NCBI GenBank assembly: GCA_015478645.1
Contig: JADMIL010000006.1
Location: forward strand, 29,609 to 93,608
DNA from: Candidatus Binataceae bacterium
GTDB lineage: Bacteria; Desulfobacterota; Binatia; Binatales; Binataceae
Length of the DNA stretch: 64,000 nucleotides
Direction: 5' to 3'
Positions 2,108 to 42,421 of this stretch are shown piece by piece; the first letter of the stretch is position 1, and every line of letters starts with the position of its first letter. The translations under genes and the position numbers were made by a program. The notes under the pieces are model-generated. The model was not told where the DNA came from. It saw only the letters and a program-made list of their open reading frames with translations, and did not search any database.

Positions 2108-3124
2108 ATGCAAGTTGCGCGTCTCTATGATTTCGGCGATATCCGCGTTGAAGCGAGCGCCCGCCCCGAACCCGGACCCAACGAATTGCTGGTGCGCGTG
2201 CGCGCCTGCGGCATCTGCTCGGGCGATATCATGCCGTGGTACATCCGGCGCAAGGCGCCGCTGGTGCTCGGTCACGAGCCGGTCGGCGTGGTCGAGCAGG
2301 CCGGCGCCGCGGTGCGCGACTTCCGGCCGGGCCAGCGGGTCTTCGTCCATCATCATGCGCCGTGCTTCCAATGCGCCGCGTGCCGGCGCGGCGAGTACGT
2401 GCAATGCGCCACGTGGCGCGCGACCAATCTCAACCCCGGCGGCATGGCCGAATATTTTCTCGTCGCCGCGCCCAACCTGGCCGACACGCTCAAGCTGCCC
2501 GACGATCTCGGCGACCTCGACGGCGTGCTGATCGAACCGGCCGCCTGTGTGGTCAAATCGATCCGCCGATCGGGCCTGCGCCCGGGCGAATCGATCCTGA
2601 TTATCGGGCTCGGCATCATGGGCATGATGCATGTGAAGATCGCGCGCAGCCTCGGCGCGGGAACCATCATCGGCGCCGACCTCTTTGCACAGCGGGCGGC
2701 GCGCGCGCGCGAACTCGGGGCGGATTTCGGTCTCGTGGTTTCTGGCGATGATCTGGCCGAACAGGTACGCGGGGTGACCGGCGGCGCGATGGCCGACGTG
2801 GTGATCGTCGGGCCGGGCACCTCGCGCGTAATCGCGAGCGGTATCGCCGCCGCCGGCAAGGGCGCGACGGTCGTGCAATTCACCGCGACCCCGCCCGACG
2901 ATGAACTGCTGGTCAAGCCGCACGATCTCTATTTCAACGAGACCCGGCTGGTGCCGAGCTACTCATGCGGTCCCGACGACACGCGCGAAGCGCTCGACCT
3001 GGTACGCCGCGGCGTGATCAGCGCGCGCGAACTGGTCACGCATCAGTTTCCGCTGGCCCGGATCAACGAGGCGTTCGCGCAGGCGCAGAAACCCGAATCG
3101 CTCAAGGTCGTCGTCACCTTCTGA
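2108..3124 (+). CDS. Zn-dependent alcohol dehydrogenase / medium-chain dehydrogenase-reductase
   Basis: Start at ATG 2108 (MQVARLYDFGDIRVE...). Catalytic Zn motif VRACGICSGD...GHEPVG, structural Zn cysteines CFQCAACRRG, and Rossmann motif IIGLGIMG. Confidence 0.88.
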   Translation: MQVARLYDFGDIRVEASARPEPGPNELLVRVRACGICSGDIMPWYIRRKAPLVLGHEPVGVVEQAGAAVRDFRPGQRVFVHHHAPCFQCAACRRGEYVQCATWRATNLNPGGMAEYFLVAAPNLADTLKLPDDLGDLDGVLIEPAACVVKSIRRSGLRPGESILIIGLGIMGMMHVKIARSLGAGTIIGADLFAQRAARARELGADFGLVVSGDDLAEQVRGVTGGAMADVVIVGPGTSRVIASGIAAAGKGATVVQFTATPPDDELLVKPHDLYFNETRLVPSYSCGPDDTREALDLVRRGVISARELVTHQFPLARINEAFAQAQKPESLKVVVTF

Positions 3125-3152
3125 GTTCGCCCGATCGAAGTCCGTCACGCAT

Positions 3153-3267
3153 TAAGGAACCTCTGCACAAGTTAGGTTGTCATTCTGAGCGCAGCGAAGA
3201 ATCCCGGATCCGGGACCCATGCGCTGCGCTCAGGATGACAGCAGTGCCTTGTGCAGAGGTTCCCTAA
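3153..3267. repeat. Nested-palindrome MITE/REP-like element, copy 1 (orientation A)
   Basis: TAAGGAACCTCTGCACAAG ... GTCATTCTGAGCGCAGCG AAGAA TCCCGGATCCGGGA CCCATG CGCTGCGCTCAGGATGAC ... CTTGTGCAGAGGTTCCCTAA. Near-identical copies at 9197, 30657 and 39648. Lies 29 nt after the ADH stop. Confidence 0.9.
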
Positions 3268-8525: not shown

Positions 8526-8704
8526 CCTGACTTTATTAGTACATGAGAACAAGGTTCTAAATTATTGACTTAAGCGAGGGGGTTACAATCTGGCTAAATT
8601 TGTGCAATAGTGGACGCAAGGTTCAGGCCGATCGGAAGCGGTAAGCTCACCGGCATTAGCCACCGCTCCGAAATCCGGTGCCTGCAACCAGGCATCTACC
8701 AACG

Positions 8705-9199
8705 ATGAGTTTGCCGTTCAAAAAGGGTGAAAAAGTCGTCTATCCCGCGCACGGAGTCGCCGTCATCGAGGATATTCAGAGCAAGGTGATCTCCGGAACC
8801 ACGCGGCGCTTTTACATGCTGCGCATCCTCGGTACGGAAAAGATGACGATCATGATTCCGACCGAAAATGTCGAAGCGGTTGGGCTGCGCCGGGTAATCG
8901 GGATGGACACGGTCAGCAAAATCTACAAAATCCTGCGGCAACGCAAAGTCGAGGCCGATTCGCAGACCTGGAATCGCCGGTACCGCGAATATACGGAAAA
9001 GATCAAGACCGGGTCGCCGCTGGAAATCGCCAAGGTATTGCGCGATCTGCTGGTGCTCAAAGGCGACAAGGAACTTTCCTTCGGCGAGCGCAAGATGCTC
9101 GATACGGCGCGCAGCCTGCTGGTCAAGGAATTGTCGATCGCCAAGGCTCATCCGGAAGAGAAGATCATGGAAGAGCTGAAGACCATGTTCGCCACCTAA
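8705..9199 (+). CDS. carD: CarD/CdnL-family RNA-polymerase-binding transcription regulator
   Basis: MSLPFKKGEKVVYPAHGVAVIEDI...RRFYMLRI (Tudor-like RID) followed by a helical C-terminal domain. Sits upstream of ispD, which is a conserved synteny. Confidence 0.88.
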   Translation: MSLPFKKGEKVVYPAHGVAVIEDIQSKVISGTTRRFYMLRILGTEKMTIMIPTENVEAVGLRRVIGMDTVSKIYKILRQRKVEADSQTWNRRYREYTEKIKTGSPLEIAKVLRDLLVLKGDKELSFGERKMLDTARSLLVKELSIAKAHPEEKIMEELKTMFAT

Positions 9200-9312
9200 G
9201 GAACCTCTGCACAAGGCTCTGCTGTCACCCTGAGCGCCAGCGAATGGGTCCCGGATTCGGGATTCTTCGCTGCGCTCAGAATGACAACCTCACTTGTGCA
9301 GAGGTTCCCTAA
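9197..9312. repeat. Nested-palindrome MITE/REP-like element, copy 2 (orientation B)
   Basis: TAAGGAACCTCTGCACAAG...GTCACCCTGAGCGCCAGCGAATGGGTCCCGGATTCGGGATTCTTCGCTGCGCTCAGAATGAC...CTTGTGCAGAGGTTCCCTAA. Its first three bases are the carD stop codon. Confidence 0.9.
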
Positions 9313-29338: not shown

Positions 29339-29845
29339 ATGGCCGTGTCGAATTCCATTGAGTTGCCGCCGCCCTTTGAGGAGGCGGTGGCGCGCCACGA
29401 GCGCGAGATCATGCGCTTTCTGGTGCGCACGACGCGCGATCGCGAAGACGCGCTCGATCTCTTTCAGGAGACCTGGCTGCGCGCCTACCGCGCCTATCCC
29501 AAGCTCGATTCGGCGGCCGGCCTGCGGCCGTGGCTGTTTCGCATCGCGACCAATCTCTGTCTTAACCGCGCGCGCGGGCGGATGCGGCGGGCGCGCGTCT
29601 TTGCCGACGAGCAGCCCGATATCGGCCGCTGGAGCGCGTCCGCCAACGGCGATCACACGGCCGTGCTCGAACTCAAGTCGGCGATTGCGGGACTGCCCGA
29701 CAAGCAGCGCCAGGCGCTGGTGATGCGCAAGTTCGGCGGCCTCGAGTACGCCGCGATCGCCGCCGCCCTGGATTGCTCGCCGGAGAGTGCGCGGGCCGGC
29801 GTTTACCAGGCGCTCAAGAAACTCAAGGCCGCAACGGAGAGATAG
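29339..29845 (+). CDS. ECF-type sigma-70 family RNA polymerase sigma factor
   Basis: Region 2 DALDLFQETWLRAYRAY...LRPWLFRIATNLCLNRAR. Region 4 LPDKQRQALVMRKFGGLEYAAIAAALDCSPESARAGVYQALKKL. Confidence 0.87.
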   Translation: MAVSNSIELPPPFEEAVARHEREIMRFLVRTTRDREDALDLFQETWLRAYRAYPKLDSAAGLRPWLFRIATNLCLNRARGRMRRARVFADEQPDIGRWSASANGDHTAVLELKSAIAGLPDKQRQALVMRKFGGLEYAAIAAALDCSPESARAGVYQALKKLKAATER

Positions 29846-29849
29846 GATC

Positions 29850-30659
29850 ATGAAAGCATCCCACCAGCCCGGCGTAACGGAATTTGCCGACGGCGAAGCC
29901 TCCGCCGCGGCGATCGACGAGATGATCGGCGCGGCCCATGCGCGCCTGGTGCATGACTTCGCGATCGTCAGGCGCCCGCCGGCGCGGGTCGGCGTGGTCG
30001 AGTCGCGCCTGGGCCCGCTGCTGGCCGCCGAAAGTCCGCGCGGACTGCTCGCGCTGAGCTTTCTCGATCATTCCGACGGCGGCGCGACGGTCGCCGCCAT
30101 CCGCCAGCTTTTCGATCCGGTCGAGGATCGCGCTGTGGCCGTCCGGGCCGGCGCGGAAATCGATCGCCTGCTCGACGGCGACGCCAGCGCGGTGACCGGG
30201 CGGGTGGTCGACTTCAGCCTGGTGCCGAGTCCGTTTCGGCGCCGCGCTTTCCAGCGTCTGCGCACCGTGCCGGCCGGCGCGGTGGTCACCTACCAGGCGC
30301 TCGCCGCGGCGATCGGAGCGCCCTCGGGTCAGCGCGCGATCGGCAATACAATGGCGACGAATCCGGTGGCCATCTACGTCCCGTGCCATCGCGTGATTCG
30401 CTCCGACGGCAGCGTTGGCAATTACGGCGGCGGCGTCGATCGGAAACTGATGCTGTTGCGGAGCGAGGGGTTCAAGGTGGACCGCGGCAATCGCGTACCG
30501 GCCGGCGCGGTCTACGGCCATTGGCTATCGCGCATCTTCTGCCGCCCGGATTGTTCGGCCGTGCGCCGCGCCGAACGCCGCCAATGGATCATCTTTGGCG
30601 ACGCCGAGCACGCCCGCCACGCCGGGATGCGCGCGTGCAAACTCTGCCGTCCGGCCTAG
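29850..30659 (+). CDS. ogt: Methylated-DNA--protein-cysteine methyltransferase fused to a C-terminal Ada-type zinc-binding module
   Basis: ATG lies 4 nt after the sigma-factor stop. MGMT motifs TYQALAAAIGAPSGQRAIGNTMATNP and PCHRVIRSDGSVGNYGGG. C-terminal FCRPDCSAVRR...FGDAEHARHAGMRACKLCRP resembles Ada_Zn_binding. Confidence 0.85.
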   Translation: MKASHQPGVTEFADGEASAAAIDEMIGAAHARLVHDFAIVRRPPARVGVVESRLGPLLAAESPRGLLALSFLDHSDGGATVAAIRQLFDPVEDRAVAVRAGAEIDRLLDGDASAVTGRVVDFSLVPSPFRRRAFQRLRTVPAGAVVTYQALAAAIGAPSGQRAIGNTMATNPVAIYVPCHRVIRSDGSVGNYGGGVDRKLMLLRSEGFKVDRGNRVPAGAVYGHWLSRIFCRPDCSAVRRAERRQWIIFGDAEHARHAGMRACKLCRPA

Positions 30660-30771
30660 GTAACCTCTGCATAAGTCAGGTTGTCATTCTGAGCGCAGCG
30701 AAGAATCCCGGATCCGGGACCCATGCGCTGCGCTCAGGGTGACCCCAGAGCCTTGTGCAGAGGTTCCCTAG
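30657..30771. repeat. Nested-palindrome MITE/REP-like element, copy 3 (orientation A)
   Basis: TAGGTAACCTCTGCATAAG...GTCATTCTGAGCGCAGCGAAGAATCCCGGATCCGGGACCCATGCGCTGCGCTCAGGGTGAC...CTTGTGCAGAGGTTCCCTAG. Its first three bases are the ogt stop codon. Confidence 0.9.
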
Positions 30772-35141: not shown

Positions 35142-35145
35142 TTTT

Positions 35146-35291
35146 TAGCCGCGGCTTCGCAGACTCGCCCGCACCCCATGCCCGCCGCGCCCGATTCACC
35201 CGCTTAATTTTTGCGGGAGGTGTGGAACCTCTCAGAGGTTCCACTTGCTGCTACTCTCTTTTTATAGCCGCGGCTTCGCAGACTTGCCCGG
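35146..35291. repeat. Composite repeat patch: family-2 copy, collapsed family-1 terminal palindrome, and partial family-2 copy
   Basis: 35146-35184 TAGCCGCGGCTTCGCAGACTCGCCCGCACCCCATGCCCG is the reverse complement of the 23069 unit. 35222-35244 is GTGGAACCTCTCAGAGGTTCCAC. 35265-35291 is TAGCCGCGGCTTCGCAGACTTGCCCGG. Confidence 0.85.
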
Positions 35292-35298
35292 AGTCTCC

Positions 35299-35820
35299 CT
35301 AGCGTGCGAGCAGTTCGCGCGTATGATGCAATGCGACGATCGTCTTGGCGTCGATAATCTCGCCGCGGGCGATCATCCTGAACGCCTCATCGAGCATCAC
35401 CCGATCGACGTCGATCACTTCGTCGTGGTCGAGTTCGCGCGGCGCCCCCTTTAGATCGCGCGCCAGGTAGAGTGTGATCCGCTCGTCGCAGAAGCTCGGA
35501 ATCGTGACGATCGTGCCGAGCTCATCCCAGCGCGCGGCAACCAGGCCGGCCTCCTCGCGCAACTCGCGCTCGGCGCATTGACGGGGCGTCTCGCCCGGGT
35601 TGATACAGCCGGCCGGTATCTCGCGCAGCCATCCGCCCGCCGCGTGGCGATACTGCGTGAGCAGCGGAATCGATCCGTCACGGTCGAGCGCGACGATCGC
35701 GCTGGCCCCGGGATGGCGGATGACGGCGAGGTCGATCGTCAGGCCATTGGGCAGCTCCGCCTGTTCGACGCCGACATCGACCACGCCCAGCTTGAGCACG
35801 GGGCGGCGCTTGATAGCCAT
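35299..35820 (-). CDS. NUDIX hydrolase (ADP-ribose pyrophosphatase-like)
   Basis: Start at ATG 35818-35820 (MAIKRRPVLKLGVV...). NUDIX box PAGCINPGETPRQCAERELREEAGL. Confidence 0.8.
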   Translation of the reverse strand: MAIKRRPVLKLGVVDVGVEQAELPNGLTIDLAVIRHPGASAIVALDRDGSIPLLTQYRHAAGGWLREIPAGCINPGETPRQCAERELREEAGLVAARWDELGTIVTIPSFCDERITLYLARDLKGAPRELDHDEVIDVDRVMLDEAFRMIARGEIIDAKTIVALHHTRELLAR

Positions 35821-36190
35821 GCCCTCAAGGATGCGGCCGGCGACGGCGGCGGGCAAGCGCCCGCGCGATCGATCGGGCTCGCGATCGCCAATGTCGCGGC
35901 CCGGATCGATGAATTCGCATAGGGCGGCCGATCCTTCTCGCTCCGCTCGGGTGGGGGCGGCGATCGATGTCTCAGACTCGGACAATCGCGCGCCGCGACA
36001 TCGCCGATTTTGACGCGAGTTTTCCCGTCCGGCCGGCGCTGCGCGCAATCGCGGCAGAATACCGATTCATCGCGCGACAAGGATCCCGGCACCGTAGTTG
36101 CTGTTCTGCCAATAGCAGATGCGTCCGCGGCGCCATTCCGATCGGATCGACAAGCACGGCGCGGACCAAATCAAGGTTCGGGAAATCCAC

Positions 36191-39647: not shown

Positions 39648-39763
39648 TTAGGGAACCTCTGCACAAGGCTCTGCTGTCACCCTGAGCGCAGCGAATGGGT
39701 CCCGGATCCGGGATTCTTCGCTGCGCTCAGAATGACAACCTAACTGGTGCAGAGGTTCACTAG
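39648..39763. repeat. Nested-palindrome MITE/REP-like element, copy 4 (orientation B on the plus strand)
   Basis: TTAGGGAACCTCTGCACAAG...GTCACCCTGAGCGCAGCGAATGGGTCCCGGATCCGGGATTCTTCGCTGCGCTCAGAATGAC...CTGGTGCAGAGGTTCACTAG. The terminal CTA (39760-39762) is the stop codon of the minus-strand usp gene. Confidence 0.9.
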
Positions 39764-40596
39764 CGCGACATGAAGACCGGGCACGGCGCGTTGCGCAGCA
39801 GATACTCGGTATTCGATCCGATCACCATCTCGATAATCCGGCTGTGCCCGTAGGCGCCGATAAACAGCAGGTCGGCGTCGAAGCTCTTGAGCGACGCGAT
39901 AATACCCTCATGCGCATGGCCCGGGACCAGCTTGAATTCGGCCTTGAGCGCGTAGGGCTCCAGGTAGCTGCGGGCCTGCGCCAGGGTGCGCTCGCCGAGT
40001 TTCAGATCGCGCGCAACGGTGATTACCGCCAGCGGCACCTCGAGCGTGCTGGCGAACTCAGCCGCCGCGCGCATCGCGCGGGCCGCGCGATCGCTGCCAT
40101 CGTAGGCCAGCAGCGGGCGGCGAATCTCGCGCATCCGCACCGGCGAGACCATCAGCGGACGCGGCGACTTGCGCGCCACGCTCTCGGTGGTCGATCCGAG
40201 CAGGCCGGTCGAAAAGCGCTCGTTGAGCCCGCGATGCCCGATCATCACGAGGTCGGCTAATTTGGCCCGCTCGCAGATCTGATTGGCCACCACGCCGATC
40301 TCCATCACGGTCTCGGCCGGCAGATTTTCGCGCTGCGCGGCGGCGGCAAATTCGTCGAGCACCGCGGTCCCGCGGGCGCTCAGCACCTGGCGCATTTTCG
40401 AGGAAAAATCGAGGTAGGGTTCAAGTCCCAGCGAACCTGATATATCATGCAGCAGAGACCCCTCGATCGACACGATATCGATTACATGAAGGCCAATCAG
40501 GGTTGCCCCGAAACGGCGCGCGAGATGAAAGGCGTAGGCCTGCGCGGTGCGCGCATGCTCGGACGTGTCGATGCCGACCAGGATACGTTTGATCAT
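39760..40596 (-). CDS. Tandem-domain universal stress protein (UspA family)
   Basis: Start at ATG 40594-40596 after GGAGG. MIKRILVGIDTSEHARTAQAYA...LIGLHVID. Second domain GSTTESVARKSPRPLMV and GSNTEYLLRNAPCPVFM. Confidence 0.85.
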   Translation of the reverse strand: MIKRILVGIDTSEHARTAQAYAFHLARRFGATLIGLHVIDIVSIEGSLLHDISGSLGLEPYLDFSSKMRQVLSARGTAVLDEFAAAAQRENLPAETVMEIGVVANQICERAKLADLVMIGHRGLNERFSTGLLGSTTESVARKSPRPLMVSPVRMREIRRPLLAYDGSDRAARAMRAAAEFASTLEVPLAVITVARDLKLGERTLAQARSYLEPYALKAEFKLVPGHAHEGIIASLKSFDADLLFIGAYGHSRIIEMVIGSNTEYLLRNAPCPVFMSR

Positions 40597-40756
40597 CGGC
40601 CGGACCTCCGTCGGTCGATCGGCGATACCATGCGCGACGCGGACCACTCAAGCGGATGCGCCTCCGGCCGGCGCGGCGCGCCCGGCGCAATCGCGATGCG
40701 ACCTTCCGGCGGGCGGCAGCAGCGCCTTCAGCCCCAACCAGCGGCGGTAACCGTCT

Positions 40757-41632: not shown

Positions 41633-42421
41633 TCATTGCGATTGGGCTCCGTCCGCGGTCACGATCCAGGTAGGCGCGTGGTCGCTCGCTCTTTCCCAGC
41701 CGCGGACTTCGCGATCGACCCCCGCGGTAACCAGACGTGCGGCCGCGGACGGGCTCAGGAGCAGATGATCGATACGCAGGCCCGCATCTCGCACATAGTT
41801 GTTTCGAAAGTAATCCCAAAAAGTGAAGATGCGCTCATGCGGATGGAGCTTGCGCAAAGCGTCAGTCCAGCCCATCGCGACCAGGTTGGCGAACGCGGTT
41901 CGTACTTCCGGAAGAAAGAGCGCATCATTAAGCCAGCGTTCGGGCTTGTATACATCGATATCCGTTGGGATAACGTTGTAGTCGCCGGCGAGAACGACCG
42001 GCTCCGCCGCGGCGAGTAGTTCTTGCGCGTGTTTCGTGAAGCGCTCCAACCATCGCAGTTTGTAATCGAATTTCGGGCCGGGTGCTGGATTACCGTTGGG
42101 TAGATAAAGACATCCTATGCGCATGCCATTAATCAGCGCCTCAATATAGCGGCTGTGTAGGTCCTCTGGATCGCCGGGCAGGCCACGACGAATCTCGACT
42201 GGATCTGCGCCGCGCGCGAGGATTGCGACACCGTTCCAGCTCTTTTGCCCATGCCAGACCACGCCATAGCCGGCTTCACGAATAGCGGCTTCCGGAAATC
42301 TCTCCTGCGGCGCCTTCAATTCCTGAAGACACGCAACGTCCGGCTTGGATTCGGCGAGCCAGCGCAGAAGCGCCGATAGGCGAGCACTGATGCCGTTGAC
42401 GTTGAAGGTCGCTATTTTCAT
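41633..42421 (-). CDS. xthA: Exodeoxyribonuclease III (AP endonuclease)
   Basis: MKIATFNVNGISARL...PDVACLQELK...GDYNVIP...RIDHLLLSP...SDHAP. Confidence 0.92.
   Translation of the reverse strand: MKIATFNVNGISARLSALLRWLAESKPDVACLQELKAPQERFPEAAIREAGYGVVWHGQKSWNGVAILARGADPVEIRRGLPGDPEDLHSRYIEALINGMRIGCLYLPNGNPAPGPKFDYKLRWLERFTKHAQELLAAAEPVVLAGDYNVIPTDIDVYKPERWLNDALFLPEVRTAFANLVAMGWTDALRKLHPHERIFTFWDYFRNNYVRDAGLRIDHLLLSPSAAARLVTAGVDREVRGWERASDHAPTWIVTADGAQSQ

Follow-up and report, generated by a model that had tools for sequence, protein, structure and literature searches.

Why should three of the four copies of a short repeat, dispersed over one stretch of bacterial DNA, begin or end exactly where a gene stops? 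The question is raised by a stretch of 64,000 nt from Candidatus Binataceae bacterium (contig JADMIL010000006.1, positions 29,609 to 93,608), which is called here the window and whose own coordinates are used below. In this window, the copies 9200-9308, 30660-30767 and 39652-39759 directly adjoin the stops of carD, ogt/Ada-Zn and usp, respectively. The element could supply these stops, seek them out or simply have landed beside them. Our analysis favors the last answer: the repeat is a MITE (miniature inverted-repeat transposable element) of the IS5 type that inserts at YTAR tetranucleotides, duplicates these 4 bp and thereby comes to adjoin stops that existed before it. We give this explanation, taken as a whole, a probability of about 0.9. 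It builds on direct observation of the anatomy of the element, of the duplication, of empty and filled sites, of unchanged C-termini of the host proteins and of a partner insertion sequence (IS) in congeners.

A first-pass annotation, made from the letters of the window alone, had described four copies of the element, and this was borne out: the 16-nt end motif GGAACCTCTGCACAAG occurs eight times in the window, as inverted pairs, compared to 0.17 occurrences expected. The ends of carD, ogt, usp, the ADH gene and the NUDIX open reading frame (ORF) also proved to lie where that annotation had placed them, after a check of the ORFs and of their Pfam domains. In what follows, G000 is the genome of the window, and G001 to G005, G009, G010 and G039 are its relatives. 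The features concerned are the following.

3122-3124: stop codon TGA of the ADH gene.
3152-3155: left flank TTAA of copy 1, 27 nt past the ADH stop; given the right flank CTAA, it is a target-site duplication that has decayed.
3156-3263, + strand: copy 1, MITE core of 108 bp (GGAACCTCTGCACAAG...CTTGTGCAGAGGTTCC; nhmmer score of 125.8 bits).
3264-3267: right flank CTAA of copy 1.
8678-9199, + strand: carD (CarD_TRCF_RID and CarD_C domains), whose stop TAA (9197-9199) lies within the left duplication of copy 2.
9196-9199: left target-site duplication CTAA of copy 2, containing the native carD stop.
9200-9308, - strand: copy 2, MITE core, in the orientation opposite to copy 1.
9309-9312: right target-site duplication CTAA of copy 2, an exact repeat of its left flank.
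29787-30659, + strand: ogt/Ada-Zn (Ogt DNA-binding and Ada_Zn domains), whose stop TAG (30657-30659) lies within the left duplication of copy 3.
30656-30659: left target-site duplication CTAG of copy 3, containing the native ogt stop; the empty site of G003 has one CTAG.
30660-30767, + strand: copy 3, MITE core.
30768-30771: right target-site duplication CTAG of copy 3, an exact repeat of its left flank.
35142-35298: patch of a second repeat family beside the NUDIX stop, not the MITE.
35299-36048, - strand: NUDIX ORF, whose stop is the complement of 35299-35301.
39648-39651: distal flank TTAG of copy 4, one base off the gene-side CTAG.
39652-39759, - strand: copy 4, MITE core.
39760-39763: gene-side target duplication CTAG of copy 4; usp stops at the complement of 39760-39762.
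39760-40647, - strand: usp, encoding tandem universal stress protein domains.

Alignment of the four window copies and of the best 84 copies of the genome delimits a core of 108-109 bp, GGAACC...GGTTCC, whose ends GGAACCTCTGCACAAG and CTTGTGCAGAGGTTCC are terminal inverted repeats conserved across these 84 copies (median identity to the consensus of 96.3%). The element is non-coding, the only ORFs that overlap it being spurious extensions of neighboring genes. A profile derived from the four window copies was searched against the whole assembly of G000 (3.06 Mb, 98 contigs, 65.3% G+C, 92% complete) and revealed 98 full copies and 38 partial ones, besides 58 that are truncated by the end of a contig. 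About 30% of the contig ends (58/196) thus break within a copy, approximately 50 nt into it, which makes the MITE a main cause of the fragmentation of this assembly; in reality, there are probably about 125 copies. In this uncultured member of the Binataceae, the MITE family is highly amplified: its 100-125 copies or so correspond to roughly one every 25 kb. Some copies stand back to back and share a single CTAG (C75:41680-41787 and 41792-41902, and also C7:54, C28:55 and C55:3315), an arrangement that is expected if every insertion makes a fresh adjacent target. Overall, the family shows small size, lack of coding sequence, terminal inverted repeats, a duplication of fixed length, dispersed and similar copies, and filled as well as empty sites, all of which are features of MITEs.

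According to the first-pass annotation, the element ends read T(T)A(A/G)GG...CCCTA(A/G), so that the stop triplets would belong to the element itself. The flanks of the 84 high-scoring copies tell otherwise. Exact 4-bp repeats flank 42 of them, nearly all being YTAR (CTAG, CTAA or TTAG), and the flank counts are 48 for CTAG, 18 for CTAA and 11 for TTAG. If the tetramer belonged to the inverted repeat, a CTAA on the left would be matched by a TTAG on the right, whereas a duplication predicts CTAA on both sides. Among the copies that are informative in this respect, i.e., those having two non-palindromic flanks (CTAA or TTAG), 19 out of 19 show direct repeats and none shows inverted ones. The flanks are therefore a duplication and not a part of the inverted repeat, and the proposed reading of the ends does not hold. 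The apparent "termini" T(T)A(A/G) and CTA(A/G) are a 4-bp target-site duplication, YTAR (CTAG > CTAA/TTAG), around the core. Since this target holds TAA or TAG and is duplicated, the stop triplet is host sequence and not an element terminus. Of the claim that element termini supply stop codons, there remains the adjacency of three copies to stops, but the TA(A/G) triplets are host target duplications outside the 108-bp core. Where the two flanks have diverged, the gene-side one is repeatedly intact, for example in CCAG...CTAG (gene on the right) or CTAG...CTGG (gene on the left), which is the outcome that selection on the stop would give.

The closest relative in the genus, G003, whose gene ends are 95-98% identical to those of G000 where they were compared, provides the corresponding empty sites. 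Its ogt site is empty and has a single CTAG at the same stop (...ccggcCTAGCCGTCATGCG..., in a longer context ...ctgccgtccggcCTAGCCGTCATGCGCGG...), compared to the filled site of the window, in which ...ccggcCTAG is followed by the 108 bp and then by CTAGCCGTCATGCG... (in a longer context, ...ctgccgtccggcCTAG, the 108 bp and CTAGCCGTCATGCGCGG...). The pre-insertion sequences of all 33 stop-abutting copies were then rebuilt and searched in G003. Eleven of these 33 sites align without interruption across the junction, and at least nine of the 11 carry one YTAR in the same position: eight an identical CTAG, and one a CTAG where G000 has TTAG. Both G000 and G003 carry the insertion at no fewer than six other sites. 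This coexistence of filled and empty sites indicates that the element has moved since the lineages of G000 and G003 split. Duplications of TA or TAA had been envisaged by the first-pass annotation; the comparison of empty with filled sites does find a duplication, the tetramer being single at the former and repeated at the latter, so that its unit is the 4-bp YTAR. Larger inserts at three G003 sites were checked as possible IS or MITE and are neither. Sites of this MITE provide presence/absence markers for distinguishing close relatives.

A second possibility raised by the first-pass annotation was that insertion had trimmed and re-terminated the host ORFs. In the carD, ogt and usp products, the Pfam domains extend to the C-terminal ends of the proteins, and element-free orthologues end at the same residue with stops of their own. 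CarD ends with ...KT(I/M)FA(N/T) (i.e., ...FAN or ...FAT before the stop) at an identical position in 11/11 congeners with a match, the stop contexts being CTAA, CTAG, TTAG, TTAA, TTGA or CTGA. Ogt ends with ...KLC(R/H/A/G)P(A/S/G) (...CRPA) at the same position in 11/12 congeners, the exception being G004, in which it is 12 codons longer. Usp ends with ...PCP(V/I)F(M/L)SR (...FMSR) at the same position in 12/12 congeners. The stop codons of these orthologues vary between TGA, TAG and TAA. Trimming or re-termination of the three ORFs is thus refuted, by the very criterion that the first-pass annotation had set. In the whole of G000, only one copy (C1:124841-124949) is entered by a convincing ORF, which encodes a histidine-kinase-like protein of 555 aa (...GNLCTS) and extends 20 nt into the element before its stop. 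G003 has a related element in this position, with the TAA of the CTAA flank in the reading frame; G000 differs from it by a 1-nt indel just upstream. The case has the appearance of a secondary frameshift, after which the next stop within the element took over, and not of a remodelling insertion.

What could have mobilized a non-coding element of this kind? A search for DDE_Tnp_1 domains across the genus, followed by a scan of the matched loci for the end motif, identified an IS5-family IS of 1171-1174 bp, of which G004 has about 25 copies and G010 a single one. GGAACCTCTGCACA(A/G)... and ...TGTGCAGAG(G/C)(C/T)TCC form its ends, and in these two genomes it is flanked by CTAA/CTAA, CTAG/CTAG or TTAG/TTAG. 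Its single ORF reaches 328.9 bits on the NCBIfam model NF033581 of IS5 family transposases (cut-off of 140) and encodes the domains DUF772 (PF05598) and DDE_Tnp_1 (PF01609). The MITE and this IS have the same terminal inverted repeats over about 16-20 bp. The IS of the congeners, which has these ends and the YTAR duplication in common with the MITE, is likely to be its mobilizer. In G000 itself, contig C78 has at one end (C78:1-72) a CTAG followed by 66 nt or more of sequence matching the left end of the IS far beyond the terminal repeat, which suggests that a full copy is probably present in the organism but unassembled. Since this end fragment at a contig break is all that the assembly contains of the IS, we infer rather than observe mobilization in trans in this organism. 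In G003, G005, G009 and G002, the transposase of the IS was not found, and G001 has only fragments of it. G004 has 61 DDE_Tnp_1 matches, of which about 25 correspond to copies of the partner IS and about 18 to those of a further element, whose frame has 441 aa; these matches form clusters (for example C1:18-118 kb, C9:17-25 kb and C3:570-590 kb) with lower third-position G+C.

From these elements, we propose the following scheme. The MITE core would be inserted by an IS5-family DDE transposase acting in trans. The insertion site is YTAR, with CTAG favored, followed by CTAA and TTAG, and with a preference for G/C-rich flanks, and 4 bp are duplicated. Because YTAR contains TAA or TAG and is scarce outside reading frames in a gene-dense genome of 65% G+C, many of the tolerated targets are the Y-TAA and Y-TAG of stop codons. 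Insertion at such a target leaves the gene intact, the gene-side copy of the duplication being the original stop, and the 3′ untranslated region (UTR) then starts with the 108 nt of the element, which can fold as a long hairpin. Any excess at stops beyond this effect would reflect purifying selection, 3′ ends tolerating insertions that promoters and ORFs do not, and not the recognition of stops. The adjacency to stop codons is, in short, the ordinary behavior of an IS5-family miniature transposon, here in a little-studied soil lineage. That element ends seem to supply stops is a matter of arithmetic, given a 4-bp target that contains a stop and a genome rich in G+C, and annotators need not invoke any remodelling of ORFs at these places.

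The first-pass annotation had also suggested that the element targets TA(A/G) stop codons. A genome-wide tabulation of the distances between copies and called stops reveals an excess at stops that is far beyond chance and is mostly lost under controls. Among 79-84 high-scoring full copies, 33-34 (about 40%) lie at a distance of exactly 0 from a called stop; of the 79 that were classified, 31-34 adjoin a stop, 42-46 are intergenic and 2-3 lie inside a called ORF. The unused YTAR sites amount to about 470-524 at stops, 2630-2880 between genes and 2430-2630 inside genes, in which copies hardly ever occur. Compared to intergenic sites, stops are used with a pooled odds ratio of about 4 (p ~1e-8), which becomes 2.2-2.5 for CTAG and 2.8-3.0 for CTAA/TTAG when each tetramer is considered separately. 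Taking 34 used stop sites and 42 used intergenic ones, compared to about 514 and about 2660 unused ones, respectively, the odds ratio is likewise about 4 when pooled, 2.4 for CTAG and 2.9 for CTAA/TTAG. Flanks matter as well: G/C occupies positions -3 and -2 in 85-87% of the used sites, compared to 55% of the unused intergenic and 74-76% of the unused stop sites. After control for both tetramer and flank G/C, the Mantel-Haenszel odds ratio is 1.75, and in the richest G/C stratum 12% of the stop sites are used, compared to 8.7% of the intergenic ones. The suggestion is therefore right in that the target YTAR includes TAA and TAG, but about 55% of the copies sit at YTAR sites that are not stops and the controlled odds ratio is only about 1.75. 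The same annotation had remarked that three of the four copies have the same orientation relative to the upstream transcript. This is true of the window; genome-wide, the orientations relative to the terminated gene are 12:21 (p = 0.16, not significant), and since there is no preference, the three out of four can be ascribed to chance.

Taken as a whole, the association with stops has three sources: (i) a target that contains TAA or TAG, (ii) a preference for G/C-rich flanks, as found at the 3′ end of coding sequences, and (iii) tolerance of insertions just after the stop. The excess is mostly a by-product of target preference and of the tolerance of 3′-end insertions, and no grounds were found for a dedicated stop-codon sensor. 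It should be emphasized that several points weigh against this explanation. The gene calls come from our own crude codon-usage finder, which gives about 2500 genes (2250-2600 according to the threshold) and a coverage of 82%. The excess that persists after control (odds ratio of 1.75) is one that target and flanks leave over. The approximately 25 copies of the partner IS in G004 rarely adjoin convincing gene stops and sit in IS-rich regions of lower third-position G+C; the site choice of the transposase is thus insufficient by itself, and selection or the genomic compartment must contribute. In G000, the transposase of the partner IS is absent from the assembly, as judged from PF01609, from a terminal-repeat scan of the transposase-bearing contigs and from tblastn with the G004 transposase. 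Finally, the interior of the MITE is unrelated to that of the IS beyond the first 16-18 nt, and the MITE is thus not a simple deletion derivative of it.

The excess left after control is also what would be seen if, in addition to the targeting of YTAR, stop-adjacent copies were useful and had been retained, their hairpin acting as a 3′-end stabilizer of mRNA or as a barrier to transcription or RNases. Roles of this kind at 3′ ends have been proposed for the hairpins of REP, ERIC and Correia elements. The predicted fold lends itself to this: copy 3 with both CTAG flanks (116 nt, 30656-30771) is predicted to form, as RNA, a single hairpin of -75 kcal/mol with a z-score of -10.9, and may have a role in the 3′ UTR. 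Full-length IS copies, which have the same target, are not piled up at stops, and the region of the usp stop is occupied by one element in G000 and by another in G003, a third subfamily lying 4 nt further downstream in G002. However, the hairpin shows no orientation bias relative to the terminated gene, and no run of T follows the window copies (the sequence that follows is CTAGCCGTC, CTAAGGCGC, CTAAACCCG or similar), so that, lacking a U-tract, it is not an intrinsic (Rho-independent) terminator. In Rfam, it matches no family (best match of 22.9 bits compared to a gathering score of 80). Moreover, sites are polymorphic between close relatives (11/33 are empty in G003), which fits recent neutral insertion, and the residual excess is small enough to be accounted for by imperfect gene calls or by selection on the promoter side. 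Retention for usefulness is therefore unlikely. Its stronger form, in which the Binataceae would have domesticated the MITE as a modular 3′-UTR hairpin setting mRNA 3′ ends or stability for dozens of housekeeping genes, its preference for YTAR with G/C-rich flanks bringing it to the very base that follows a TAA or TAG stop, appears a little more doubtful still. If hairpins of this family do affect mRNA 3′ ends, about 34 genes of G000 would be concerned.

That the transposase or a host factor recognizes translation stops or gene 3′ ends, which would make the element a dedicated stop-codon-targeting transposon, is what the approximately 40% of copies at distance 0 and the pooled odds ratio of about 4 would suggest at first sight. 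This is nevertheless very improbable. Besides the majority of copies at non-stop YTAR and the near disappearance of the excess once tetramer and flank composition are controlled for, TGA stops, which end about 54% of the genes, are never used except through decayed flanks, and the autonomous IS copies of G004 rarely adjoin real stops. Furthermore, DNA transposition is not known to have access to reading-frame information.

The inner part of the MITE brings in another candidate, a repeat of the REP/BIME type whose spread would depend on a RAYT tyrosine transposase instead of a DDE enzyme. The inner palindrome of about 64 nt (positions ~22-87, GTTGTCATTCTGAGCGCAGCGAAGAATCCCGG...) does stand alone, without IS5-type ends, as REP-like repeats do: it is found at about 10 loci of G000 (for example C35:56714-56777, C98:13572-13634 and C33:88664-88719) and at many in relatives (G001, G003 and G039), including other families of the class. 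However, the IS5-type terminal inverted repeats and the 4-bp duplications that full copies possess are absent from REPs, and G000 has no match to Y1_Tnp (PF01797), so that we reject this reading as scarcely credible. Equally improbable is the idea that TA(A/G) triplets are element termini that trimmed ORFs and gave them new stops: the histidine-kinase-like ORF that ends within its copy on C1 is a case in its favor, but one explained by the neighboring indel, and the element-free orthologues, the single CTAG of empty sites and the direct co-variation of the flanks all contradict it.

Being an IS5-type MITE that adjoins pre-existing stops, the element is a further member of an already known type. 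IS5 duplicates Py-T-A-Pu and its commonest target is CTAG (PMC5493358). The E. coli IS5 and the partner IS are alike in having a single DDE transposase gene (DUF772 and DDE_Tnp_1; NF033581), a length of about 1.2 kb and a 4-bp Py-T-A-Pu duplication that is most often CTAG; compared to IS5, the present MITE is a non-autonomous derivative. The preferred flanks differ, being G/C-rich here whereas easily melted regions (stress-induced duplex destabilization, SIDD) have been proposed for the IS5 of E. coli (PMC5493358).

The closest described element is MITEPsy1 from Pseudomonas syringae pv. phaseolicola, which is 100 nt long, whose ends of 18 nt read GGAAGGTCTGAAAAAGCC and which duplicates 4 nt, CTAG or YTAA (PMC3189936). 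It is associated with ISPsy2, of the IS5 family, and its transposition was trapped in vivo, including into the 3′ end of an effector gene (PMC3189936). Both MITEs are non-coding elements of about 100 nt whose terminal inverted repeats start with GGAA and measure about 18 nt, and both duplicate 4 nt (CTAG/YTAA). The ends of each are also nearly identical to those of an IS5-family IS, which is the co-occurring ISPsy2 in the case of MITEPsy1. However, their sequences are unrelated beyond the end pattern GGAA...CTG...A.AAG, and their copy numbers differ widely (six for MITEPsy1 compared to about 100-125 here). Unlike for the present MITE, no association with stop codons has been reported for MITEPsy1. 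The present MITE is further set apart by its modular interior, which comes from a separately dispersed hairpin repeat, and by its host, an uncultured lineage of Binataceae.

MITEs of the Correia/NEMIS, RUP and ERIC types are likewise small, palindromic and non-coding, with terminal inverted repeats and TA-containing duplications, and are often co-transcribed as hairpins downstream of genes (PMC2229807). They differ by an IS630-like TA dinucleotide target and by being A+T-rich, whereas the present MITE is G+C-rich, targets YTAR and has IS5-type ends. We found in the literature no explicit report of IS5-type MITEs adjoining stop codons, which is no proof of novelty.

A last claim of the first-pass annotation concerned the NUDIX ORF, whose stop was attributed to a degenerate copy of the element. 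The MITE profile finds no copy at 35142-35301; the sequence belongs instead to the second repeat family, which consists of dispersed units of about 40-55 nt, sometimes in tandem, with a full version of about 135-143 nt at three places. Within the patch, the mini-palindrome GTGGAACCTCTCAGAGGTTCCAC at 35222-35244 resembles the outer 9 nt of both MITE ends placed head to head, without YTAR flanks.

Other repeats were observed at the same gene ends in relatives. Other congeners have similar hairpins, TGAA(A)CCTC...GAGGTTTCA, downstream of carD, ogt and usp. In G003, a patch of the second family bearing GTGGAACCTCTCAGAGGTTCCAC also follows the usp stop (L035). In G002, a second CTAG follows the usp stop CTAA at a distance of 4 nt and is occupied by a divergent subfamily, GGAAGCTCTGCACAAGGTCC... 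(L043). The end of usp thus carries different repeats in three lineages: the MITE in G000, a patch of the second family in G003 and the divergent subfamily in G002.

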